From: Leptogorgia sarmentosa
Lineage: Eukaryota
Direction: 5' to 3'
Assembly: GCA_964658305.1 (NCBI GenBank)
Contig: OZ210885.1
Coordinates: forward strand, 6,510,001-6,574,000
Length of the DNA stretch: 64,000 nucleotides
Part shown: positions 35,664 to 62,334 of the stretch, one piece after another
Layout of the letters: each line of letters starts with the position of its first letter
Numbering within the stretch: position 1 is the first letter of the stretch
Notes under the pieces: model-generated
The model's database searches: none
What the model was told of the DNA's origin: nothing
Seen by the model: only the letters and a program-made list of their open reading frames with translations
Program-made: the position numbers and the translations under genes

Positions 35664-38420
35664 TCAATGAAAGCAATTAACAAGTGCACATACTGCCTTA
35701 TGATCTGAGAAATATGTTTCTAAAATGTGCAAGTTAGCTTGTGATTCTGGTAAATTTGTGAAAATATGATCTATTAATGTCTGATTATCTGTAGTGACAC
35801 TGCACACCAACTGTCTATAGTTATTGCCATTGGTAAAGAAATTATATAAAGGCCTTCGATTGGCTTCATCCAACCAATTTATGTTAAAATCACCTATGAA
35901 AATGTTGAACTGTGAAGTACGTAACATAAGAACATCATTCAATGCATTTAATAGTTGCTGAACAGGAATTCTGGGTGATCGATATATACCTATGATGCTA
36001 ACATGTGGAAGAATCATGACTTTCATAATAGTTATTTCAATTCCATTTACATTATGACAATGTGGATATCCAGGTAAGAATTCAACTCTGCTGAAAACAG
36101 CCATGCCTCCAAAAGGTCTGGAAGTTGAAGAGTGACTGTCATTTCTGAACAAGGTGTAACCATCAATAGCATACATACTATCATCATCAGAGTTCATAAT
36201 TCGTGTTTCAGAAAATATATTGATGTCAGTGTTTGTGAAGTTGAGATCATGTCGAAGAACATCATTAATATGTTTGTGCAATGAACAGGTATTCAGGTAG
36301 CACAACTTGAATGAGACTTGATCTGTCTTATAAATAGGAATAACACTAAGTTTCAGTGCACATTCATTTCTCAAGAATTGCATATTCTAAGTTGTCCTAA
36401 ATATATACCTATCCATTACTGGGGGAAGTTGAAATGCACCATATGCAACTATGCTTACACCCCCAAAATCATTTTTACTCCGCTTGATGTCTTTTAATCT
36501 ATTATTGGTCTGAACATTAAACATTGTACTACCAACCATGGATATCTCATTCAAAAATTTTAGCTTTAAACCACCAAGCTGACACCTCAAAGTGTTTAGT
36601 CTGCTTGAGTCAAGCGCTTTATAATTTTTTAAGGACTGAGATGCTGGTATAACAAATGCATTATGAATTGTGTTGCCTTCAATGTTAAAAGCTGCTTTAC
36701 CAGTTGGTGTAAGCAGTAAAATTTTGACTTGATGAAAATCATCACTGGCTCTAGTATTATAATATTTCAACGCTGCTTGGTATAAACATTTAGTGAGATG
36801 TGATTTCCCAACTCCAGTTCCTCCACTCAGAAAACAATAGAAAGGATTGTCAGAAGTTTTGATTAGATGCAAGACATGATAAAAAATTCTTTTTGTTTGT
36901 TTGTTGAGCTTTTGTACCATAGTTCTATAAACATCATCCTGTTCTTCATGTAATATTAGTTGTTCAGTATTGGATGCTGTTGAAGGAATTCCAAGATCAC
37001 CAGAAAAATCATAGTTTGGATTTAATTGTGGATGAAGGTCTAGTGTACCTTCAGACTCATCTTGACGCTCAACATTTTGTGTTCCTGGGGCAACTAAGTC
37101 ATAGTTGTCAGCGTTATCTTGCATATTATCAAGCTGTTCTTGGATATCATCAAGGTCTTCACTACAAATAGCATACTGTTTCATTTGTTGATCAATTGTA
37201 GTTTTCACTTTTAAAAAGTGCTCTTGATAGGAAGAATAGTTTTTTATTAAATCAGTTGTTTCATTTCTCTATGATGTAAATAGCATGATCAGTTTACGGT
37301 AGTGTTTCTCAGAATCAACTTCCTTGTTGAAACATACACTTCGAATAATCCTAGCTTTAGATCTTTTTATTTTTTAGTTCATATTCTCTTTCCTCCTTGT
37401 CGTCATCATTATCATCATTATCATCCATATTTGTCACCACAGGATAGCTTATCACTATCTAGTTCATTAGTTGGTTTGAATATGGCTTACCAGAACAGTC
37501 ATACCAGGCAGCCCAATCAGCAAGAGATAAATTTTCAAGTTTGGCTGGTCGTTTTGTATAATGCTTTATCAAACCAGATGCATAAACCTCATTGGAATTA
37601 TCTTCCATATGATTTATTTATTTCAATGGCTTTAGTAACTGAACTCTTTCCTCAGGAGGTGAAGTGTTTACAAAGACTACCTGGCAAGATGATTTTCTCA
37701 TAGGAAGTTGCAGTACAATGTAGACTGCTTCTTGTGCACTTATTTCAACATTGTTCAAAAACTTGTTTCCAATGTCTCTTACTTGTTGCTTAATATTGGA
37801 GTTTCCTGCTCTTGCTTCTTCACAAGCAGATCTTAAAAGCTTGCTCATACCTTTTTGTTCCTTGGATATATACGATACAATGTATAGTGCACATGCATAA
37901 ACATCAAGTACAAATTGAATGTCCATGTTAGCTTGCCATGCACTAAGACATGCTGCATTATAATTGTTGATCCTTAATTCATTTGGTTGTCTTTTTAAGA
38001 ACATAGTTGGTGTCTTCAGACTGGATCGATTAGCTAGCAAATACTTTTGATCTGTCAGTTTCAAGTTTATCAATAACTGATCAAATGTAATGTCCTCACC
38101 CTCTTTCATATCATTCAGATGTTGTTTAATAAACTTCCAATCATTTTTGTGTTATTCCAGTTCATTATTATTCATATCAGTATCTAATGGATATAGAATT
38201 GTTGTTGACTTCATTGGTGGTTGTGGGTAATTAAAGCGGCATACAGTTTTTGATTTCTTTCGACAAGTGTGAGAATGGCTGTCTATTTACAAGTGCAAGT
38301 AACTCTGGATTTTCAACTGGTTTTTCACATGTGATTACTTTATCAATGAATGAAACAACATCATAGTCAAAATCTATAGCAAACCTAGGAGCATTTTCTA
38401 ACCATATTAACATAGTAACA
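35664..38420 (-). pseudogene. Helentron Rep-PIF1-APE endonuclease remnant
   Basis: Rep: AWQANMDIQFVLD, YIVSYISK, EISAQEA. Helicase: GGTGVGKS, EISMVG, FQLPPV. APE: LNTCSLHKH, FSET, GDFN, IDHIF, YFSDH. Multiple deletions and frameshifts. Confidence 0.9.
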
Positions 38421-38886: not shown

Positions 38887-40876
38887 AGTAATATACTGTA
38901 AACTTGGAACTTTTTTCAGTAGCCTATATTCATATTTAGTTTTTTTCCTGATGTGAAATGTAAATACTATAACGTTTTTAACATTTTAATTAAACACATT
39001 TTGTTTGTCTTTTGTATAAGGTTGGGTGGTTGATTTCATTTTACTGCAAACTTTCCAAAAAAATTATTAAGCAATTTGTCATCAGTAGCAAAAGCCAAAA
39101 TGTAGCTTGTTGAAAAGGAATCCATGCAACAATGCAAGTATAAATTATTTTAAAATTTCAATGCGACGATCGAATTTTGTCAATTATGTTTGTAGATTTA
39201 TATATTAATAACTAAACGATATATTACAAAACATTAAAACCTAGAACTATACTCAAACATATTTCCTAAAACAGCATGCTGTCCTATCAAATATGTGATG
39301 TAGATAAAACTCTTAAAGAGGGCTGCAACATCCTCTATGTATTTTGTGGTTTTAATCTCCATGCAAATAATGTAAGACAAACTGTAACTCGCTTTCTCGG
39401 CAATTATAAAAGCAGAATAATTTTTTTAAAAAGTCAGTCAGTTAGCAGTAGTCTTTCACAGAACGGTACATAGCAAATTTAATATGTGGCGAGCACACAA
39501 TATTTAGCTCTTTCTGCAAGAAAACCTTGAGGAAGGCAATACTGTGTAGAAGGATGGCCAAACGGGAAAAGCTGCACAAACAGCCGCCAACATGCAGAAG
39601 GTGTTTCAGTACATCGTTTTCCTATGAAAGACAAAGAGCGACTGAACAAATGGACCGCTTTTTTACAAAGACATCGCCCAGAATTTATTCCTCGACAGTA
39701 CTCTGTGCTGTGTTCAATGCACTTTGCCAAATCAGCATTTACAATAAACGTGGAGGTAGCAAAAACGCTCAATATGAGAAGACAGTTACGCTCTGATGCT
39801 GTTCCAACAGTAGATTCGCTAGAAAGCATGTCCACACCAAGTGATTTGAGTAATTGGGATCGCAGGATGGTATGTTTAAAATAATACAAATAAAAACAAA
39901 TTATTCTTATTATATACATTTTCTTTCACACAACCATTTGTTACAAGAATTTCACTTGTCATACTCAACAGGCATTGCGAGAAGTATCTTTAATTATTGA
40001 TCCTGTTGTTGAAACCATTGAAGATTGATCCAACAAAATGATGATGTGCAGGACGCGACAGAAAGTGATACAAGTGAAGTTCCAAATGATACACGAGAAA
40101 CATGCAGTAAGTGCGACGTTCTTGCAAAGAAAGTTCTCCAGCTCCAGAAGAAAATCAATTGGCTAAAACAATCCAACCAGAGGCTAAATGACAGTCTAAA
40201 TTTGGTAGGTATAAATTGATTATATATATATTAATTGGTTAACAGTAATAATTAGCGTCTTCTAACAGGACTTATTGTTAGAACTGTTGCTTACATGACG
40301 GATTGCACTCATTGTAAATTTACACTACTATTCCTACTCATATGTTCAAGGAAAGTGACGAGTCAGATGCTGAGAGTGACGATAATCAATGGTGAACAAC
40401 ATGAGTTGCACGATTTGGATGACGTCGAGGAGATCATTAGAGATCCAGGGGAACATACAGATATTATGTTACAAAAGATACATACATCGAGGATTCCCAG
40501 TCTTGAAACACAGTAAGGTGAGTGGTTAGAGCACATACTGCACTGGAGTTAAAAAACAAAAGCCAACTTATGGAAATATACACCCGATTCTCTTTAGTAT
40601 GGAACCTGTACCTTACCATGTGATGAGCCGAAATTTATTGTGTTTTATGGCATGCTCGTATCGCTGTTCAGCATGATTTGCTTCAATTGCAAGAGTCCAA
40701 ATCCTGAAGTAGATGTCAAGAGGACTGGTTCAATGGCTGTTGTAGCACAATGTTGTTATGAGTGTGTGTGGCAGGAATTTTCAATGGAACAGCCAACCAA
40801 ACATACTAGGAAAATTTGCCGCTGGAAACCTTATGACAAGTTTTGTTATTCTGATGTCAGGTGTCAGCATAAGCAA

Positions 40877-41131
40877 CAATCCTGGTCAAAACATTGGCGA
40901 CACATACTATTTTTCTATGGGGTTTAGAGCAAAATAAAGAACCCTCCCCCTTTCCCCCACCAATCAATGCTGGATGGTGTTGCATAACATGTTTAATGCA
41001 TTTGGCATAGACTCAACATTGTTTTGGGGGCGGAGGGGGTATTTTGACAAGAAAAATTAGACGTTTTATAGTCGAAAACCTCAAAATGGACAACTTTATT
41101 AGAGTGTAGTTAATGGTTTTGGCCAGGATTG
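40877..41131. repeat. Left 255-bp terminal direct repeat with its own TIRs
   Basis: Starts CAATCCTGGTCAAAAC and ends GTTTTGGCCAGGATTG. Confidence 0.95.
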
Positions 41132-41307
41132 TCTGAAAATGATCAAAGTTCCGGCATGCATAAATCGTTGGTTTTACCGCGACTTCTTTCAGGCTTTGGG
41201 AGAAGAAGTTGGTTAAGAACTTTTGGAGTGAATACAATGACGTCACATATTAATTATCTAATTAAATACATCATAAATATAACAAATTTGTAGTACTGAG
41301 ATTAATA

Positions 41308-42391
41308 ATGTGTGGCAAGAGACTTTCTCCAGAAAAGGTTGCATATTTATGGCTTTTGCTGAACGAAAACAAGTGGAATGCGACCGAAATATCTAGGAAA
41401 TTAGAGATATCTCGTTCTTGCATATATAAGTATAAAAAGCGTGGTATATCCGATGCTGACAACAAAAAAATTCACAAAGGAGGGAGACCGAGAAAGCTAA
41501 ATAAAAGAGACATGAGAAAGTTACTAAGGACCCTAAAATTATTGCAAGCACGGGAAGGAACTTTCACATCCAAGAGACTTGCTAAGGAAGCGGGGCTAAA
41601 TCTAAAAAACGTCAGTATGCGAACGGTTCGAAGGGCAATGAACGAAGCCGGTTATAAGTATTTGCAAGCAAGAAAGAAAGGGATACTTAAGAAGACTGAT
41701 CTTAAAAAGAGACTTTCGTTTGCCAAAAAAATGAAAAATGAGCATTCAAATCACGTGTGGCAGAAAGAGAAACTTTTTTCTGGACAGTGTTAGCTTTGCA
41801 TATAAAAGAAATCCTTTTGATCAAGGCAGTTCGCCAAGGGGATGAATTTGGAGAAAGCCATGCGAAGGACTCGACTATGGATGTACAGCAAAAGGAAAGA
41901 AGGAAGGAAGTGGCGGAAAGTTAGTGAAGCTAATGGTTGCCATCTCATTTAGGAAAGGCGTTATAGACTGTGAACAGTATGATAAAATGAGCGGCGATTA
42001 CTTCAAAGGGTACATAAGTCGTAAATTTCCAGAATTATTCCAGAAAGCTGATAAATTCCCCTCCAAACTTTGGATTCAAGATGGATGCCCTTGTCAAAAT
42101 AGTAATGCAGCGAAAATGGCAATGAGTGAATCAGACGCAGATTTGTTATCTATACCACCTAGAAGTCCAGATATAAATCCAATAGAAAATCTATTTCATC
42201 TTGTAAGAAGGGAACTAGACAGACAAGCGATAGATGGAACTATAACGCAGGAAACCTACGAAGAATTTGCGACCAGAGTTATAAACACCTTTAAATCTTT
42301 CCCTATAGAGCGTGTTGATAATATTATAGAATCAATGGATAAACGAATGAGTATGATTATAAGTAGAGGCGGTCAAAGAATTAAATACTAA
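41308..42391 (+). pseudogene. Tc1/mariner (IS630-Tc1) DD34E transposase with one frameshift (~41770) and one stop (~41843)
   Basis: HTH and GGRPRKL; RTVRR; FFLDSVSF; WIQDGCPCQ; SPDINPIEN, with 34 residues between D and E. Confidence 0.9.
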
Positions 42392-43012
42392 TTGTGCGCT
42401 TTTACATATTTTTGTAATAATATAAAGTTATTATGAACTGGGCGTCTAACATATATTAATAATAATCTGTCATTTAGTTACAATGAACATTCATACAACA
42501 CGCTCATATTATTGCATAATTAATTTATTGACGGTGCACCAAAACGTGCGGAAGAAAACGTTCAATATTGTCCTAAACTGTGAAAGTACCAAATGTCAAT
42601 AAAACTGTTCTAAAAGTATTTACAATGCGTATCATAGTGATATATTTTTGGTACGATATTCTGAAATCGTTTGCAAAATCTCAACGGTGCACCATTTTTG
42701 GCACAAAGCAATGCTATATAATTACTGTAGATATATTCTTATGACTGTACGATGCACCAATGGTGCACCGTTGTATGTGTGCGTGATTTTCAGCCGTTGC
42801 ATTATTATTATAATGAGCTTTCGGTATTTTACGGATTGAAACAATATGTTAGTCTTCTAAACTCCTTATAGCATACAAAGTTAAGTGTTCGCATAAAATA
42901 AGCACCATGCATGCAGTAATGCGATATCTATAGATATAGTATAACGAAATTAATAAAATTATTCTTTCATAGGCACTTGCTACATTCACCTAATACTGTC
43001 CTATGCCTAGTT

Positions 43013-44290
43013 TTAATTTTGTTCAATGCACACTAAACATGCAAAGCAACGAGGGCAGGGTTTTATGTCTATCTGTTCATCTTCTGATATTTGATGCGTG
43101 AGTGAGAATACATTCCAACGTACAGACATCATCTCAGTCTCACGCTCATCGACTGTACAACCTGTGATGTACGCCAATCTATACTTGCTGGTCGCAAATA
43201 CCGGCGTATCAGCTTCAAATAAAATATCTTCGGCAAAGTGAGTTTTAGGCGCCGGAAAGTGGACGGGTTCGCCTTCGAGTAATAAGAGCAGGTCATGCCA
43301 AGGAATAATTTTATCATTCCAACGGAAGTTGTTTAAAAATATACACTCAGCTTGCTGGACACCTACCCAAGCAAAAGTGCCGGAAGCAGGATTAGTAAAG
43401 GTGTGATAGATTGCTTTTAAGGGTTTAAGTAGAAACGTTTTACCGCAATTAGCAGGACCAATGAGCATGATGTTTCGATATTTTCCCCGTCCTTTTTGCA
43501 ACAACGTATAGATCGCATTGGCAAATTCTCGTGCTCCTATACCATTCGCTGTTAGAACTTCTTTAGCGCATTCTAACCAACGACCTTCACAGTTCCCAGC
43601 GCAATCGCCTGCTTTAGCTTCTTATAACAATTGCATGCGTGTCTTCTTGCTTCTTTCCAAGTTATCCTTTGCGTTGCACATGTCCCAGGTTGTTTTTATG
43701 ATATGCGCAATAACTTTTGGTTGCCTGTTCATAACAAATTCCGCGAGATCGGATTTTCCTTCATCCTTCTGCTCCCGGGCCAGAGCAAGCAATTCCGTAC
43801 GAGTCTTGATCGACCTAGCTTCAATAATTTCGGACACCTGTAAAGATGTCATCCTCTTTTTTCTTCGACTTTCTTGATGTCGTCTCCTCGCCCTCGCAGT
43901 CAGACTCATCTCTTGCAGTGGCTGTGGCAACACTAGCGGAATCTGTTCTTGGTGGCTCGCCATTCGTCAAGTCAGGATGACCAGGACTCTGTAAATACTC
44001 TGTGTCAGATTTAGTGACGTATTCCCATGCGCTGAAATAGTTGTGATGTACTGATGAAAAATGCACCGAAGCATCGAAATGATCCAACAGAAACCGTTTA
44101 ATTTTTAGCCATCTTTGCTTTCGTTCCAGTTTGATTGCGACATGATAATGCTTGCCACCATTCTCATGATCTTCGAGACAACAACACCACTGTATAACAT
44201 TATTGTCCTTGCTAAACGCAAGGACAATAATAAATAGGTTATTAGATAAACCTGCCTTGTATCGCGCGCTCGAAGACCGTCTGTCGCCAT
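43013..44290 (-). pseudogene. HUH-endonuclease Rep fused to SF3 helicase (CRESS-virus/parvovirus NS1-like), with frameshifts and a stop
   Basis: Motif I YLITY, motif II GGKHYHVAI (44142-44150), motif III YVTK (44010-44021), Walker A GPANCGKT (43436-43459), Walker B IFLNNF, motif C VFATS. Confidence 0.85.
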
Positions 44291-44501
44291 TGCATGAAAT
44301 TTTTCACTTATATTTACTAACACATGTAACCAACTATAATATATCTATTTGGCGTGAATTCAAACATCACTAATCAGGAATAGGAAATAAAGTATTATTC
44401 AACCCATTCTTTTAATTGTCGTGAATTGACAAACGTGACACTAGCGTATCCGATCAGTGTAACTATTCTTTCAATTTGTTTTAAATAATTAAATACATAG
44501 A

Positions 44502-44756
44502 CAATCCTGGTCAAAACATTGGCGACACATACTATTTTTCTATGGGGTTTAGAGCAAAATAAAGAACCCTCCCCCTTTCCCCCACCAATCGATGTTGGAT
44601 GGTGTTGCATAACATGTTTAATGCATTTGGCCTAGACTCAACATTGTTTTGGGGGCGGAGGGGGTATTTTGACAAGAAAAATTAGACGTTTTATAGTCGA
44701 AAACCTCAAAATGGACAACTTTATTAGAGTGTAGTTAGTGGTTTTGGCCAGGATTG
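44502..44756. repeat. Right 255-bp terminal direct repeat with its own TIRs
   Basis: 251/255 identical to 40877-41131 by manual comparison. Confidence 0.95.
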
Positions 44757-45269
44757 AAGGTGTTCCTATTATTCAAGCATTTAGGCTTTTGTACAATTAC
44801 TGGCAGGACATATCATAAACATCAGAACAGGTTCCTGCCGCCCTCTGATAATCTATTGGAAAAACTATCAAAATGCTCTCATGGAACAAGTGAAGAATGT
44901 TAAGGATGCAACATGGTCTGGTGATGGTCGTTTTGATTTGATGGGGCACAGTGCTAAATATGGCACAGAAACCAGTCCAACTGAAATACTTTGATATTAT
45001 ATTTTCAGATTATGTTAATGAAATAAAAAATGTTGTGTTGTCCACTTTTGAGGAAACCTTGGAAAAGGTAATGACTGAATACCAGGAGAATATTCCAGAA
45101 GCATTGAACAGGAGGTTTCCAGATTGGCTCTCCAAAACTGAAGCAATCAAACGCCAGTTAGAAAGAAAGCAACTTCCCTCAACTCCATTGTTCCCTTCAT
45201 GTAAGTTTTGGTACATGCATGCAAACATGTATAGATGGATAAATAGTGCATTCTAAAAATTACAAAGTC

Positions 45270-45725
45270 AAGACTGTCCACGACAAGTATATAAAGCAAC
45301 AAAATAATGAAAAAATATACGCTTGTTTCGTAGACTTTAAAAAAGCATTTAAATCTGGCATGACTGGCATGATGGACTTTTCTTAAAATTACTAGAAAAC
45401 AAAATAGGAGGGAGATTCTATGATTTGATAAAAGATCCATATACCAATACTAGGTGTGCAGTGAAGATATCAGATCATAGAACCCCCTTCCTCTCTTATC
45501 GTAAAGGAGTTCGTCAGGGTTGTGTCCTAAGCCCATTATATCAACGAATTACCACTATTATTTGAAAAATCTACTCCCGATCCTTTCATACTACCAAATA
45601 ACACTGCAATAAGCAGCCTTCTCTATGCCGACGAATTAGTAATGTCATGTTCAAAATCTGGACTCCAAAATTGCTTAGATGTACTCCATAACTGGAGCGA
45701 AAAAATGGCTACTAGAAGTCAATCT
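45270..45725 (+). pseudogene. Non-LTR retrotransposon RT fragment
   Basis: YACFVDFKKAF, KGVRQGCVLSP, SLLYADE. Confidence 0.8.
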
Positions 45726-50641: not shown

Positions 50642-51063
50642 AAAGGCCCATTAAAAACGGCTTGCACTTTTTCTTCACACAATTTGATTTAATCGCATGA
50701 AAATATGGAGTATGATACAGAAGCTATTCAAGTTTTAAGAAATTTGGTGCACGCTGAGACGAACGTGCAATGTCCGAAAACTGGATTTTGCATTCTTTCC
50801 TGCTTGATTACCGATTTATTTATGCATAATTGGATATTTGCAATGTAATGCCAATGTAAATTGCAAGCTAATTCCCAAAGGTCCGAAATTACGCGAAGAA
50901 CTGCGGAAAATCCATTTTTTTGGACATCGCACGTTCATCTTAGCTTGCACCAAATTTCTTAAAACTTGAATAGCTTGTATATCATACTCCATATTTTCAT
51001 CCGATTAAATCAAATTGTGTGAAGAAAACTATTTTTCCATGCAAGCCGTTTTTAATGTCCTTT
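50642..51063. mobile_element. MITE with ~145-bp imperfect TIRs
   Basis: CATTAAAAACGGCTTGCA...TTCACACAATTTGATTTAATC...GCTATTCAAGTTTTAAGAAATTTGGTGC is mirrored at ~50910-51060. Confidence 0.85.
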
Positions 51064-51254
51064 CAGTAACCACATTTCCCATTCTAAAAAAGTTTGTTTT
51101 TAAAATAAACTTAGTGCTAGATATACCAGAGGGTGTTAAACTACCCAGGCTAACCAAAGTTTAGAAATTTTGAGCGCTCGTTAGTTTAGAGAATGTTTTA
51201 CCATCAGTTAACGTTTTTTTATACACCCTGTAATTTATATTATGGTTTACTCAC

Positions 51255-55329: not shown

Positions 55330-57251
55330 TTAAACACCCCCTCGCCTTACTAACCAATTAATGCAACTATATTTTTGGAACACGAAGTACTTCAAAGGCT
55401 GCCTGAGAGCACAGATTAAGAGCACCAGATATGTAACTCCGGCCAAAAAAGCGTAAGGGCTCCGTCACTGCGCATCGCTTGCTGCGCATAGCTTAGCAAG
55501 TGACTTGAGGCATTCACCCCCCCGACAAATTTCAAAATGGCGGGGAATGATCAGGAGTTGAATAACAACAAACATAAAAATAAACTCTTTTTGTGTGCTT
55601 AAAACAGGATTGTGTCGTTAAATCTGCCGTTAAAACTTTCAATGTCACTAGGCGTGTGAGAAAAGTGAGTTGGTGACAATTAATTTGCGATATTTTACAA
55701 TTTTTGTCTTTCGATCGTGATCTATAAATTATAAAAAGCGAACGAAAACAAGTTAAAATGATTCAATATTCCATATAAATTTATTTTTATCACTGAGAAC
55801 TTATTGTATACGTTTGTAACTATTGATGTAAGAGGAAACACCAGTCTCGGATTTTTCTTTTCAATAACATATCATTGTTTACTTTGTTTATTGTTATAGA
55901 AGTGGAAGATTTTACCAGTGAAACAATGAAAAAGTTTACAAAGCGACTGTGCCCCGGCAGTATTGTCGAATATTGACAATTGTTTATAAATTAAATATAG
56001 TATTTGTTATGTTAATACATTTTGAAAGATTAAAAAGTTTTTTTTATGAATTATGTTATTATATTATTAATTAAATTAATTATTATGCAGTGCATTTTCT
56101 TTAAATGATTAACTCATAACCTAGTGGCCTAAAATAAAAGAAAATGCAGGGCCTGTGATGTATCTGCTTAAAAAATGTGTCTGCTTAAGAAAATTGCCCA
56201 CTTTGTCAGGGTTTGACTGTCATATAAAAAATACAATCACACCTTAACAAAGTGGCCAACTTTGTGAATTGACAGTCATATATGGCTAAATACAGGTATG
56301 CACAGGTGAGACTTGGAGTGTTCTATAAATGTCAATGGCTTGAAATAATTGCTGTTAGAAAACTGAAGTGCTAATACATATGAGTAACATGTGTTTCAGA
56401 TTAGAGAAAGATTAGGGTTAAATTGAAATACAACAAAACCTCACTAAACTGCCACTCCAACAATAGACTCCTTAAAATAGGACTTACATTCACTTGCAAT
56501 GGTGCTGGACATGTAGAACATATTTATATGTGATATTTATAATGTATTAGCCATCAAACAACTTTATTTTTCAAGTGGGAAGTGGTGTAAACAGTGGTGT
56601 CACTATTAGTAGTGGTTTGTAAATGAGATATTTACTTTGAGAACAATGGTGCTAAAGTGAGCTATATAATTTTTTTAATCTAATAATAAATGAAAACTTG
56701 TATACTTTCACACATATAAAACGATACAATTTTGGCGGAGACAATAAAATTTTTGTGAAATCATTCATCCGAACTTCAAAGAAATACAATTTTAATATTT
56801 TATACATAGTCAATGTTACATAAAACGATTATTAACGAAACCAAAGGACATGAACAATTGAACGTGGTACAAACTAAAATATTTCAAATATTAAAAACAC
56901 TTTTAAAATTGTATTGTGGAGCATCAAAATATCTTCATTGCCAAACAGTTGAATTATAATTTATACATTTCACATTTAAAAGGATTCAGAACTTTACTCT
57001 TCTATATAAACATTATGTAAGATATCTATATTAATATATCCAAAGAGTTCTGTTAGCTCAGTGGTTCTGTTCAAAAGAATATTTTTGGAAAGCACGTCCA
57101 TTTTTAATTATAATTTGTAAAACCGGATGTAGAAAATCAAAACATGGACAGGAAGTGACGAAGCCGGCGCAAAAATGCGGGTTATTTAAATCACATTGTG
57201 GGATTTAAATGTTTTGCGTGCAACCAAAACAATCTCAAAATAGTATAAATA

Positions 57252-60200
57252 ATGGATGTATTGGAAAAAGAAAACCAAATAACAAAGTGCGGAACAACTT
57301 GGTGCGCAGCTGAAAATTGTTTCAGCAACAAACTATCAGATCCAAATCTATCTTTTTTCCGTTTTCCGAAAAACGAAGATCGGTAAGTTGACGAATGGCG
57401 TACTCGCATCGTTTGTTTTAATACTTTTCATTACAATATCACAGATTAAGAGTCCTCTTAATCTGTGGCAATATGCTATAACCATATATACTTTGACAGC
57501 TATTTAACTAATTAAATGGAAATTTACAGGTTAACAAAGTAGTAGCTTGTTTATCAATTTTCAAAATTTTATTATTTTAGATCAAAACTATGGGCAGTTA
57601 ATAGCAGCAGATATGATTTAGTAAGCAAGGACTCAGTTTATTTGTACAATAATTGCAAATTATGTGCAAAACACTTTTCTGAGTCCTGCTTTCGAAACTA
57701 TAAAAATAACAGGCTTAAGGATATGGTAGTGCCCACAATATTCTCACAAAATCTAGGAGTAAAAAGAAGACTTTTTGACAGTGGTACACCAGGTAATTGT
57801 TCTTAGTAACACAAAATTTGAATACTATGGTCATATAATACCATATCTGAGCATATCAATTGCAGATTGTGAAATACCAACCAAGAAAGTGTCATTAGCA
57901 GGACGACCCAGGATCTTATTTTCACCAAATTACAATGAAGGTATCAAAAGAATGAGGTCAATTTATTGTTTAACTCATAAATAATAAAGTCACATTCTTG
58001 TTGTTGTTGTTGTTGTTGTATTATACTTGGGTGTTGTGTGGATGCACACTAAGAGTAATACCACAATCAATAATGTCAACATACCCTACTTTTTACATTA
58101 GATCCATCGCCAGCAGTATATTGCACTGCAAACACCGACACGACTTCCAGCACAGAAACAGATCCTGCAAATTCAGGTAATACACATTTTAGAAAGGTTT
58201 GTCACAATTACATAGACAGACAATTATTCCCACAATCAATAATGTCAACATACCCTGCTTTTTACATTAGATCCATCACCAGTAGTATATTGCACTGCAA
58301 ACACCGACACGACTTCCAGCACAGAAACAGATCCTGCAAATTCAGGTAATACACATTTTAGAAAGGTTTGTCACAATTACACAGACAGACAATTATTCCC
58401 ACAATCAATAAAGTCAACATACCCTACTTTTTACATTAGATCCATCGCCAGTAGTATATTGCACTGCAAACACCGACACGACTTCCAGCACAGAAACAGA
58501 TCCTGCAAATTCAGGTAATACACATTTTAGAAAGGTTTGTCACAATTACACAGACAGACAATTATTCCCACAATCAATAATGTCAACATACCCTACTTTT
58601 TACATTAGATCCATCGCCAGTAGTATATTGCACTGCAAACACCGACACGACTTCCAGCACAGAAACAGATCCTGCAAATTCAGGTAATACACATTTTAGA
58701 AAGGTTTGTCACAACCACACAGACAGACAATTATTCCCACAATCAATAATGTCAACATACCCTACTTTTTACATTAGATCCATCGCCAGGAGTAAAACAA
58801 ACATGGCTAAACATGCTCTGAAAGTGAGTTTTCAAATACATGAAACACAAATCAATTTATCATTCATACAACATTGCCATGCAAGATCTAAAGTGACAAC
58901 AAACACACCAACAAAGAAGAAATTGCGGGCAATCATCAACAAAAAGGATCAACAAATTCATCGCCTAAAACAAAGAGTCAACTGTAAGAAGTCAAGTAAG
59001 AAATCGAAACAAGAAGCTTTACAGATATTGGAAACAATACTACCCGGCAAAATCTGTGATTTCGTCAAGTCACAAGTTGAGCTACACTCAAACAAATCTA
59101 AGAAAGGAAACAGATATAGCAGTGAAACTAAGGCCTTTTCACTTTCTGTTTATCACATGAGTGGAAAGGCATATAAAGTGATATCAAGCCTCTTCTGTCT
59201 GCCATCAAAGTCGACATTACTCAAGTGGATATCAAGAATACCAAGTTGCCCAGGTCTTACAACTTATGCGATGAATACAATAGCACATAAGGTGAACACT
59301 TTGAGTACTGCAGGAAAACAATGTGTAATCTCATTTGATGAAATTTCCTTGAAGAAAAATTTGTCTTACGAGTCAAATACCGACGAGCTGGTTGGCCTCG
59401 AGGATTATGGCGATGGCAACAGATCTGATTCCTTGGCAACATCAGCCATAGTCTTCATGGCACGTGGCATAATAGATAACTGGAAGCAACCCCTTGCATA
59501 CTACCTGGTGAACGAGGCATGTGACAGCAGCATTGTTAAAGAAAAGCTCTTTGGAATTATAGAGAAAGTAGAAAGCATTGGCCTGAATGTCGTGGCAATC
59601 ATATCAGACATTGGGTCCAATTTCCAAAAGTTTGTCAAAGAGATGGGCATTACACCCGAGAATCCATTTTTTACCTACGGCAAAAAGAAGATCGTATTCC
59701 TTTTTGATACGCCACATATTGTGAAAGCTATCAGAAACAATTTGATTAAATATGACTTTCATTTTGGTACGAAGTTTGCATCATGGAAGGATATTGAATC
59801 ATTTTATCGGATGGATACACAAAATGCAATCCGATGTTGCCCAAAGCTGACAAGACAGCACATATCTCCAAATAACTTTGAGAGAATGAAAGTTAAATTT
59901 GCTACGCAAGTATTGAGTCACACTGTTTCAGCTGGCTTAATGATGGCAGTGAGTGGTGGCTTACTTCCAGCAACTGCAGCAGGAACTGCTGAATTCACCT
60001 CGAAAATTGATGAAATTTTTGATTGTTTGAACAGTTCAACATTTAAGAACTCCAAGGAACTGAATAGACCCATCACAGCTGAATCCAACCATTGTGAATT
60101 CATGAAAAATGCCTCCTTATTTGTTAAACAAATTAGAGTCAAAGATCGGGAAACTGGGAAAGATGTTACATCCACATTGAAGTGTTTACGAGCCTTGCAA

Positions 60201-61016
60201 ATAACTTTGAATGGAACAGTCCTTATATGGAACACCATTCAGCCAGTGGCTAAGTTTTTATGCACGAGAAGACTCAATCAGGATCCGTTGGAAAACTTCT
60301 TCGGGTGCATCAGACAGCAAGGTGGCAACTGTGATACGCCTACCCCATTACAATTTAAGAGAGCATTCAGGAAGTTGTTTTTTGACAACTATTTGCTGCA
60401 TTCAAATGGTAACTGCAGTGCAGATGTAGATGCCATCTTGGTTGGTTACAAGACAACTGGAAAGAATGTCCCGGATGACATTGAAGAGGAACACGAAGTA
60501 TCCCAACCATTCCAGGTTAATGAGTCGGATTATCAGCTCCCGGCAGCCAAGCAAAACCTTTTCATGGAAAATGCTATCACTTATGTTACTGGTTACCTAT
60601 TGAAAAAAAGTTTACAACAGCATCAATGCCAAATTTGTTCTAAAGAACTGGTAAACAATGACCAACTGGACAGTTCGAGCAAACTGTTTACCTATTTCAA
60701 GGCATATGACAACAACAAAGGCCTATTTGGAGGTCTCAAAGTACCCACAGCAGACTTCGTGGAATACATTCAGAAAATCGAGGATCTATTCATGCAAAAC
60801 TTTCCACGTCTTATGACAAAGAATGGAATTGGCAAGCATCTGGTCGATCTACTACCTAGATTCTTTGCTCCCTGCTGTGACCAATTTCCCAGCGAATACC
60901 TCGTTAGACTGTTCGTCCGAATGCGGATATACTACGCAGTCAAATTTGGTAACCGAGACATAAGAAATACAAAGAGGGGAAAGAACAGGAAATTCTTTAA
61001 AGTCACGCACCTATAA
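57252..61016 (+). CDS. P-element/THAP9-like transposase; THAP exons 57252-57382 and 57581-57792, exon 57866-57940, four repeated 75-nt exons, catalytic ORF to 61016
   Basis: THAP motifs CAAENC...FRFP...W...CAKHF...VPTIF; SFDEISL, IISDIG, DTPHIVK, QDPLENFFG. The in-frame junction to the long ORF is unresolved. Confidence 0.88.
57440..57467. mobile_element. 28-bp P-element remnant/excision footprint
   Basis: CACAGATTAAGAG-TC-CTCTTAATCTGTG is the first 13 bp of both TIRs of the host element, flanked by ACAATAT/GCAATAT. Confidence 0.85.
58061..58789 (+). repeat. 169-bp tandem repeat, ~4.3 copies, each unit an intron plus a 75-nt exon
   Basis: TTACATTAG acceptors before 58102, 58271, 58440, 58609 and 58778; CAG/GTAAT donors. 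Confidence 0.92.
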
Positions 61017-62334
61017 ACAAAACAGAACATTGGTAGCTGGTAAAGATTTGTATTGTTATTTCATAATCTATTATAAGCTTTAAAGCTTAAATCATTGAAA
61101 TTTGTATTATTAAATATTACCCATTGTAAATTTAAATTAATGAAGAATTGTATTAATAATCGATTATAAAAATCAAAAGTCAGAATGGCTGAATTTATAT
61201 ATTTACATATTAAAAATTATATTGTTTATAACGTGACACGAATGGAATGTTTTTCTACTATTATGATTTACCTTTTCGCTCAAAAGGCCAGCAGGCAAGG
61301 ATCGTTGCTTTAAACACGATACAAAATCCATCGACATTATATCCCAATCCGATAGGACGCTCATAAGACGTACAACTACATGATCCTGTTCAACTGTTCA
61401 GAAAACCCGACGGGACTAGTTTTTTGGCACCGTTAATATCGTTAAACTTTCCGACATATTCAACTCAAATGCGTTATAAAAACATGCGGACGTCTTCGTA
61501 AATTAGGTTTCTCATGAAAACAGTGAATAAAAAATATATCTACTATTTCAAGTTATATTTAAGTCCACTTTCTGCGTTATTTTAACGCTCCATGCGGTCT
61601 TTCAACTCCTGATCATTCGCCGCCATTTTGAAATTTGTCGGGGGGGTGAATGCCTCAAGTCACTTGCTAAGCTATGCGCAGCAAGTGATGCGCAGTGACG
61701 GAGCCCTTACGCTTTTTTGGCCGGAGTTACATATCTGGTGCTCTTAATCTGTGCTGAGAGGTTGTTGTCATGGCAACACGATCGGAAATTCATATTTCTG
61801 TCATTTTTTGAAAACAGTCGAAATATAAGCTTTAAATCTTTGTTTTATAGGTAGCCCAACGCACGCATGACGTAACATTCAATAGTATAATATGATAAGG
61901 TTGGCAAGTAAACCAGCATATGACTCGCTACCGCTTAAAGCAAGTTGAAAAAATCAACCTCTTGCGAACAAACTTCGATAAAAATAGCAGCCCCTAATTC
62001 TAGGATAATAATACTAAATATGTACAACGTTTTTTGCCAACAAAACGTGTGAAAAAGTCGAAAAAAAACGAAAAGTTTCTCTTAATTTGCTGTGTCTCTA
62101 TGCTGGATGCCTGTTGCCGTGCAAAAATTACCGTTCGAAATTATGAATACGGATCCTATTGGTGGGCTGTTTTGTCGGTTTATTTATAACCAATAGGAAT
62201 GCGTATTGAATCTGATGTGAATCTTCGTCATTCATCACAATACTGCACTAATAACGCTTCTTTTAAGAACCACCAAATCTCAAAAAAGAATAAAAACAGT
62301 TATCTTGATCAAATTTTGTACACGCCATAACTCT

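Follow-up and report, generated by a model that had tools for sequence, protein, structure and literature searches.

A two-gene Tc1-type unit interrupts a decayed transposase gene

The window analysed here is a 64,000-nucleotide stretch of A+T-rich, eukaryotic DNA from Leptogorgia sarmentosa (contig OZ210885.1, positions 6,510,001 to 6,574,000), in which an earlier note, made from the sequence alone, had described a Tc1-type transposon that carries a gene for a replication protein (Rep) beside its transposase gene. We find that this 3880-base-pair (bp) unit belongs, as a dead copy, to a large and conserved Tc1 lineage that has two genes and composite-like ends. Its boundaries lie exactly at 40877 and 44756, where the earlier note had placed them, and are formed by two 255-bp direct repeats that differ at 4 positions (98.4% identical). 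Inverted repeats of 16 bp terminate each direct repeat on both sides, and those at the outer ends of the unit are likewise 16 bp long, with 94% identity. These composite-like ends, which are long direct repeats with inverted ends as in KolobokP, were missing from the earlier note and constrain the mechanism most. The locus is arranged as follows.

39531..45000 (right limit approximate), plus strand: interrupted host element, whose THAP-bearing transposase gene is decayed; the insertion target, outside the unit
40875..40876, no strand: left target duplicate, 2 bp, AA (TA in relatives), at the empty-site joint
40877..41131, plus strand: left long terminal direct repeat, 255 bp; carries inverted ends of its own at 40877-40892 and 41116-41131
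40942..41039, no strand: inverted core of the left repeat (C-rich tract, CAATG-box, spacer, reverse box, G-rich tract)
41308..42391, plus strand: Tc1-type DD34E transposase gene, broken
42392..43012, no strand: intergenic region on which the two genes converge; inverted iteron-like repeats lie at 42531, 42684-42696 and 42759-42773
43013..44290, minus strand: gene for an HUH endonuclease with a superfamily 3 (SF3)-type helicase (Rep), broken
44502..44756, plus strand: right long terminal direct repeat, 255 bp; carries inverted ends of its own and a core at 44567-44664
44757..44758, no strand: right target duplicate, 2 bp, AA

The interrupted element encodes a THAP domain (E = 1e-16) and has reading frames on either side of the unit; we presume it to be Kolobok-like, judging from this domain and a further motif. 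The unit is flanked by AA on both sides. Contigs of six public runs (X1, X2, X4, X6, X7 and X8) contain an empty site in which 40874 is joined to 44757, with 50 and 79 letters as the longest short side of the contigs at the joint. Because this joint skips 3882 bases, we conclude that the insertion made a 2-bp duplication in the THAP-bearing transposase gene. The earlier note had proposed that removal of the unit restores the interrupted frame; the frame does return, but the unit alone is insufficient, and only the removal of 3882 bases, which comprise the unit and one AA duplicate, restores it. The exact ends and the empty-site joint indicate that both genes arrived as one insertion, as had been proposed. 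An assembly artefact at the locus is ruled out by the empty site in six runs, and a chance repeat was rejected as an account of the direct repeats. Since the outer ends of relatives read TA, we regard the AA of the window as an off-consensus target site.

The runs also bear on the repeats. A variant common to both window repeats (41087/44712) is rare in four runs, which fits copying from one template but, as a single site, is not counted. In four runs, the summed contig depth was approximately 3-12 times as high over the repeat as over the inner part; in X8, a contig has the repeat between unrelated DNA on both sides. Both observations point to solo repeats. In X2, contig depth was approximately 350-380 inside the element and approximately 73 on two long unique pieces, values that are not copy numbers. 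Both genes are broken in the window copy, with two lesions in the transposase and four in Rep, and contigs of the runs differ from the window at the frameshifts and stops of both genes.

Transposase and Rep proteins

The window transposase contains Tc3-type helix-turn-helix (HTH) and DDE_3 domains by Pfam, and the HTH_Tnp_Tc3_2 match (E = 2.4e-9) shows that the N-terminal bipartite HTH is present. Its lesions are a frameshift near 41765-41790 and a stop at 41843-41845. All three DDE residues are invariant in 120 of 120 homologs, and the spacing of 34 that defines DD34E enzymes was found in 108 of the 120 (the other 12 were not parsed) as well as in the window. The best match of known structure is SB100X, a form of Sleeping Beauty (E = 1.8e-15).

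Convergent with this gene, as the earlier note had described, the window Rep contains motif I (YLITY), HYH, YVTK and Walker A, together with Walker-B-like and motif-C-like stretches. A deletion just after motif I (~44222-44234) places YLITY and HYH in different frames; in addition, the frame shifts near 43860, a stop interrupts it at 43622-43624, and an otherwise invariant Walker-B position is substituted. Pfam matches of the window Rep are weak (REP_ORF2-G2P, Gemini_AL1 and Parvo_NS1), as are the mixed matches obtained over 84 Rep members of the family. These members retain motif I, HxH, the catalytic tyrosine, Walker A and an arginine finger, with the HUH tyrosine present in 84 of 84, the histidine in 83 of 84 and the Walker A lysine in 84 of 84.

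No PDB sequence was matched in a profile search with Rep. The intact relative P0002, however, gave a confident structure model (predicted local distance difference test score, pLDDT, of 92). Against the PDB, this model matched adeno-associated virus 2 (AAV2) Rep68 first (E = 3.9e-13), and against viral models it matched papillomavirus E1 (E = 3.8e-16) and parvovirus NS1 first, the first named Rep from a CRESS DNA virus (circular, Rep-encoding, single-stranded) appearing at rank 16; sequence identity in these structural matches was 10-18% throughout. The Atlas listing for Rep gave cnidarian and perkinsozoan clusters followed by Cossaviricota. The earlier note had called Rep CRESS/parvovirus-like, and the combination of HUH and SF3 stands, but the predicted fold resembles parvovirus NS1 and papillomavirus E1 more closely than it does typical CRESS Reps. 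In P0002, four near-invariant cysteines (246, 250, 428 and 431; 79-84 of 84) form a putative zinc site that would join the linker to the C-terminus.

Rep and transposase form a stable two-gene lineage

Relatives of both proteins were recovered in numbers. A search with the helicase part of Rep found 324 longer relatives among 683 candidates, mostly of 430-530 amino acids (aa), and a search with part of the transposase found 279 relatives among 520 candidates. The profile of 84 Reps matched 895 Rep clusters at E <= 1e-10 among 7,994 scored, and the Rep profile gave 925 matches at E <= 1e-30 among 50%-identity representatives. Named Rep members come from Porites, Acropora and Holothuria, and the family is widespread in corals and other marine animals. 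A cluster from Polarella glacialis (P0464) contains distant Rep relatives with an added domain; eight of its accessions fall within CAE8640467-476 on one 144,849-base contig, which suggests a tandem array.

To compare gene neighbourhoods, we used 81 loci, made up of the best 80 of 139 metagenome stretches (79 loci) and two loci from GTDB, which fall into 52 families by Rep DNA. A transposase match was present in 45 of the 81 Rep loci (weak in L062) and lay on the strand opposite Rep in all 45. Where at least 1 kb was available downstream of Rep, a convergent transposase was found in 28 of 29 loci, and it was found in all 22 families with enough room. Gene order and orientation are constant across families, between which the median Rep identity is approximately 47%. 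The linkage is thus not a one-off capture, and Rep has no ends of its own, both in keeping with the earlier note. Both open reading frames (ORFs) are whole in 11 of the 81 loci. Contigs of equal size (3811, 3951, 14921, 13745 and 1693682) occur in the Rep and transposase match lists, which we treat as a hint only that close transposases are accompanied by a Rep; at L089, the flank is too short to tell.

Between L001 and L004, the ratio of nonsynonymous to synonymous substitution rates (dN/dS) is 0.16 for Rep and 0.20 for the transposase; two more Rep pairs gave 0.16 and 0.085, and one more transposase pair gave 0.05. These values indicate purifying selection on both genes in the diverged pairs examined. 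One Rep pair with 98% identity gave 0.60 from few changes.

The family carries no sign of a capsid gene. The window unit has no further ORF of capsid size, as the earlier note had also stated, and 13 near-unit-length contigs contain no extra ORF of at least 150 aa. IMG/VR contains no Rep relative, and only 7 distant matches were found there with the transposase; 85 IMG/VR matches to the inner-junction pattern were dismissed as chance because neither gene is present. GTDB yielded two Rep fragments and one close transposase on contigs of metagenome-assembled genomes, which are probably misbinned eukaryotic DNA, the remainder being distant IS630-like genes. No Rep was found in 87 distant transposase loci, a weak control in that most of these loci are bacterial.

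Ends, junctions and internal repeats of relatives

We found 19 complete repeats of 150-276 bp in 18 loci, all of which start with CAAT and end with ATTG. The side of the repeat that faces away from the nearest gene reads TA in 12 of the 19 (cTA in 11; 8 families) and shows the inner flank of the family in 7. All 12 outer junctions, from 8 families, read TA, the AA of the window copy being the exception. Inner flanks mostly read AGA before and TCT after the repeat, in the window as well, and continue the inverted repeat outward over 4-6 of 6 bases, which is expected if a repeat lying between inner DNA is a real substrate. In the L003, L025 and L039 families, the inner junction retains TA and is still symmetrical.

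The L002 family illustrates several forms. L002 itself, a whole copy, shows a TA duplication and has 263-bp repeats that are identical to each other; the right flank of L001 is different, and L056 is in junction form, with one repeat and inner DNA on both sides. Partial direct repeats lie at both ends in L001, L012 and L028. Gene order is permuted in twelve loci, and four loci are terminally redundant (L003, L007, L016 and L074). The sea cucumber gene model P0001 consists of four near-identical Rep copies in a row on a 104-Mb contig, which suggests that arrays exist but is silent on their origin. Three permuted contigs (L058, L059 and L072) have, besides a repeat core, an incomplete Rep and no more of the transposase than its last part; they are possible non-autonomous or defective circles. 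Two further contigs, L021 (147-bp arms) and L081 (~220-bp arms), fold back on themselves, a form that can arise as an amplification chimera.

Two sets of internal sequences recur. All 15 aligned repeats contain a central inverted core that consists of a C-rich tract, a box, a spacer of 23-102 bases, the reverse box and a G-rich tract; the box reads CAATGTTG in 14 of the 15. The full core pattern was present in 32 of the 81 Rep loci and in 0 of 172 control loci (1.32 Mb), a count that is partly circular because the pattern was derived from 15 of these repeats. The outer inverted ends differ between families while the core is constant, and we infer that the core is a candidate nick site or two-way promoter. 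The second set consists of short repeats of the form ACGGT-NN-ACC, which lie in opposed clusters between the 3' ends of the two genes. We counted 102 matches in 27 intergenic regions, compared to a shuffle mean of 9.9, and both orientations in 19 of the 27 regions, compared to 0.7 in shuffles. The sequence of these repeats differs by family, and Rep-binding iterons likewise vary by family. The intergenic repeats are putative iterons and a candidate Rep-binding origin.

A proposed model of replication outside the chromosome and transposase-mediated insertion

Our preferred reading, to which we assign a probability of roughly 0.55, is that the family uses Rep for replication outside the chromosome and its transposase for re-insertion, passing through a circle or concatemer that is then excised from repeat to repeat. 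A circle of the inner part and one repeat would be released by Rep nicking from repeat to repeat, comparable to the replicational release of geminiviruses, or alternatively by recombination between the repeats, which would leave a solo repeat behind. Rep would bind the iterons and drive rolling-circle synthesis of circles and head-to-tail concatemers. The transposase would bring a repeat's left end together with the right end of the following repeat, excise a repeat-inner-repeat segment and insert it at a TA, which would produce two identical repeats. If instead both ends of one repeat were paired, the repeat would move alone as a small non-autonomous element.

A one-repeat circle of the unit would have its two genes diverging from the repeat and converging on the intergenic region. 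Small two-way circular viruses have this same diverging and converging layout, with the transposase here in the place of the capsid. Geminivirus Reps release the unit between repeated origins by rolling circle, as described in the available part of PMC2585570. This precedent, together with the two-way layout of the circle, favours the one-repeat circle model. The same model accounts for the identical repeats, the symmetrical and fixed inner junction, the solo repeats and the multimers.

Several observations weigh against this reading. All data are contigs, in which no circle, concatemer or single-stranded form was observed, and the permuted and terminally redundant contigs may represent tandem arrays in the chromosome or loops that the assembler made through a collapsed repeat. 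Two complete repeats were found in only two copies (the window unit and L002). The Walker B of Rep reads N-D and its motif C ends in K (80 of 84), both of which deviate from the SF3 consensus. The core and iteron patterns were composed after inspection of these sequences. A NANTATTAC-like hairpin, the sole pattern of this kind tried, lies inside none of the elements scanned (the window and 45 loci), its one match being outside the element; moreover, the putative iterons are approximately 1.5 kb from the repeat core, and geminivirus iterons flank the nick site. L080 is a Rep fragment with no transposase and is the sole miss among the 29 loci with room. Lastly, the Rep and transposase trees agree only partly (Mantel rho 0.63, p = 0.017, n = 9), with L032 and L074 changing position. 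Because the trees differ in places despite correlated pairwise identities, we do not claim strict co-descent. Of the hybrid, self-replicating element proposed in the earlier note, the stable two-gene lineage stands, and its extrachromosomal rolling-circle amplification is retained as a hypothesis.

A route with no free replicon, similar to that of KolobokP, would have whole units cut and pasted from their TA-flanked outer ends while the inner flanks protect the inner ends, and Rep would nick or re-replicate the element in place, generating arrays and restoring the two-repeat form. Tc1 cleavage favours a flanking TA, and most inner flanks are non-TA. Tandem Rep copies on long contigs (P0001), with hints in Acropora and Polarella accessions, are also consistent with replication in place. 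KolobokP shares the ends, solo repeats and multimers, and in the accessible text its authors propose nuclease-induced unequal crossover (PMC9587614). However, protection alone would not predict the symmetrical inner flanks that retain TA in L003, L025 and L039, and a full helicase and iteron clusters seem beyond the needs of nicking; we consider this route unlikely. A Rep-replicated circle could also integrate through replicative transposition of a single repeat, in the manner of IS6/IS26, which would fuse the circle to its target and double the repeat, or recombine into a solo repeat. Such cointegration predicts the repeat-inner-repeat structure, identical repeats, a fixed inner junction and target duplication, but the nearest solved relative of the transposase is Sleeping Beauty, which is a double-strand-break cut-and-paste enzyme, and the catalytic residues are all of the ordinary DD34E kind, and we judge this route improbable even though the accessible text on KolobokP raises the IS26 analogy (PMC9587614).

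Two further explanations involve viruses. The unit could belong to an unknown virus as its satellite or one of its segments; the capsid that packages it would then be encoded elsewhere, and the genomic copies would be its integrated form. Sea anemones are reported to harbour circular viruses that have capsids and whose Reps are papillomavirus-like, along with integrated fragments (PMC11071296), and the Rep fold matches AAV Rep68 and E1; against this, IMG/VR holds no Rep relative, the near-unit-length contigs have no further sizeable ORF, and the ends and target site are of the transposon type, which makes a satellite very improbable. An endogenous virus with a capsid was rejected. That a Tc1 element captured a viral Rep as passive cargo with no role in its spread would fit the decay of the window copy, the partial transposases of L058, L059 and L072 and the lack of one in L080. 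This idea is largely refuted, and we give it hardly any credence, because Rep dN/dS is 0.09-0.16 in three diverged pairs, its catalytic residues are invariant, and gene order and orientation hold across families whose Reps share a median of approximately 47% identity.

If replication by Rep and insertion by the transposase is the correct reading, it has implications beyond this family. Cut-and-paste transposons cannot raise their copy number by themselves, and a stable lineage with a replication initiator of its own would give the best-studied DDE superfamily of eukaryotes a way to replicate. The question posed by KolobokP, how eukaryotic composite-like elements keep two identical end repeats, would also gain a testable answer. 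Rep further bears on how the replicases of papillomaviruses and parvoviruses relate to circular replicons. Because intact natural copies with both ORFs whole exist, the mechanism is testable now.

Neighbouring features of the window

Several other features lie in the window. On the minus strand, 35664-38151 is a decayed Helitron-like region with a PIF1 helicase (E = 1.2e-12) followed by an endonuclease domain. On the plus strand, 45300-45720 lies within the tail of the interrupted THAP element and contains a fragment that, judging by its motifs, is presumably a non-long-terminal-repeat reverse transcriptase. Small repeats at 39226-39301 and 50650-51200, the second of which is a palindrome of ~400 bp, have very high depth in runs X2 and X7 and are probably miniature inverted-repeat transposable elements. 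A tandem array with a 169-bp period (58061-58794, ~98% identical) overlaps the start of an 811-aa ORF (58581-61016), and a 155-bp inverted pair (55408-55562 and 61601-61755, 98.7% identical, ~6 kb apart) may represent the ends of another transposon.

Comparison with known systems

The usual Tc1/mariner element has a single gene between one pair of inverted ends. The window family shares with such elements, exemplified by Sleeping Beauty, the bipartite HTH, DD34E catalytic residues, short inverted ends and, in relatives, TA duplication, but departs from them by its second gene, by direct repeats at its ends, with four inverted ends in each unit, by an inner junction that is fixed, and by iterons. 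The closest parallel in structure is KolobokP, for which the accessible text reports long terminal direct repeats with short inverted ends, solo repeats, multimers, a DDE transposase with a second nuclease gene, and marine invertebrate hosts (PMC9587614, Kojima and Bao 2022). In contrast, KolobokP has a Kolobok transposase, RR..YY ends and a nuclease of the His-Me finger type (PMC9587614, same text), whereas the window family has a DD34E Tc1 transposase, CAAT..ATTG ends, TA duplication, repeats of 150-276 bp and a convergent HUH-SF3 Rep.

The earlier note knew of no described family with this layout. We likewise found no description of the order repeat, transposase, convergent Rep and repeat, or of the proposed circle-based route, in the literature searched, a scope that leaves aside Repbase Reports and most subscription journals. 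The combination of genes does have a precedent in the geminivirus-like transposon of Tuber melanosporum, a multicopy element that joins a Rep gene and transposase ORFs (PMC3198968, Liu et al. 2011). As far as the accessible text describes it, the Tuber element is one fungal family with a geminivirus-type Rep and 37-bp inverted ends only, neither target duplication nor direct repeats are reported there, and the type of its transposase is not stated (PMC3198968). The same text places Hydra DENSOV_HM (Repbase) near the base of papillomavirus E1; this entry, named there in the text and on a tree, may be a member of the window family that has already been catalogued.

Parvovirus NS1, AAV Rep68 and papillomavirus E1 share HUH, a helical linker and the SF3 fold with Rep. 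Sea anemones harbour 'RepE1' cressviruses, which have capsids and Reps of an E1-like kind (PMC11071296). Unlike all of these viruses, the window family has no capsid and carries a transposase at the place of the capsid gene. CRESS-DNA viruses have in common with it the Y1 HUH motifs I-III fused to an SF3 helicase, of which Walker B and motif C are atypical in the window family, but the capsid gene and NANTATTAC-like nonanucleotide stem-loop of these viruses were not found in the elements scanned. Replitrons and Helitrons are also eukaryotic transposons with an HUH Rep (PMC10288648). In the accessible part of that source, the HUH protein is the transposase itself, Replitrons have no helicase, Helitrons combine a Y2 Rep with an SF1 helicase, and both lack a DDE enzyme and mostly make no target duplication (PMC10288648). 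The separate DDE gene, SF3 fold and 2-bp duplication rule out assignment of the window unit to either group.

As rated here, with replication as a property that we infer, the window family is a Tc1 variant, and it would be categorically new if a replicating intermediate were found and Repbase held no such entry. The odds are slightly below even, in our estimation, that it represents a new class: a capsid-less, plasmid-like replicon with a geminivirus-like two-way layout and a Tc1 transposase in place of the capsid. Such a replicon would be the DNA-only equivalent of a long terminal repeat retrotransposon: identical end repeats would be restored as rolling-circle replication ran from one repeat to the other, and integration of the product would fall to a DDE enzyme. 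In that case, Rep would represent a lineage able to nick DNA, placed alongside parvovirus NS1 and papillomavirus E1 and extending to dinoflagellates, perhaps with a different transposase there. Taken together, these comparisons show that the window family has the catalytic residues, ends and target site of Tc1 elements and falls outside the definitions of KolobokP, CRESS viruses, Helitrons and Replitrons.

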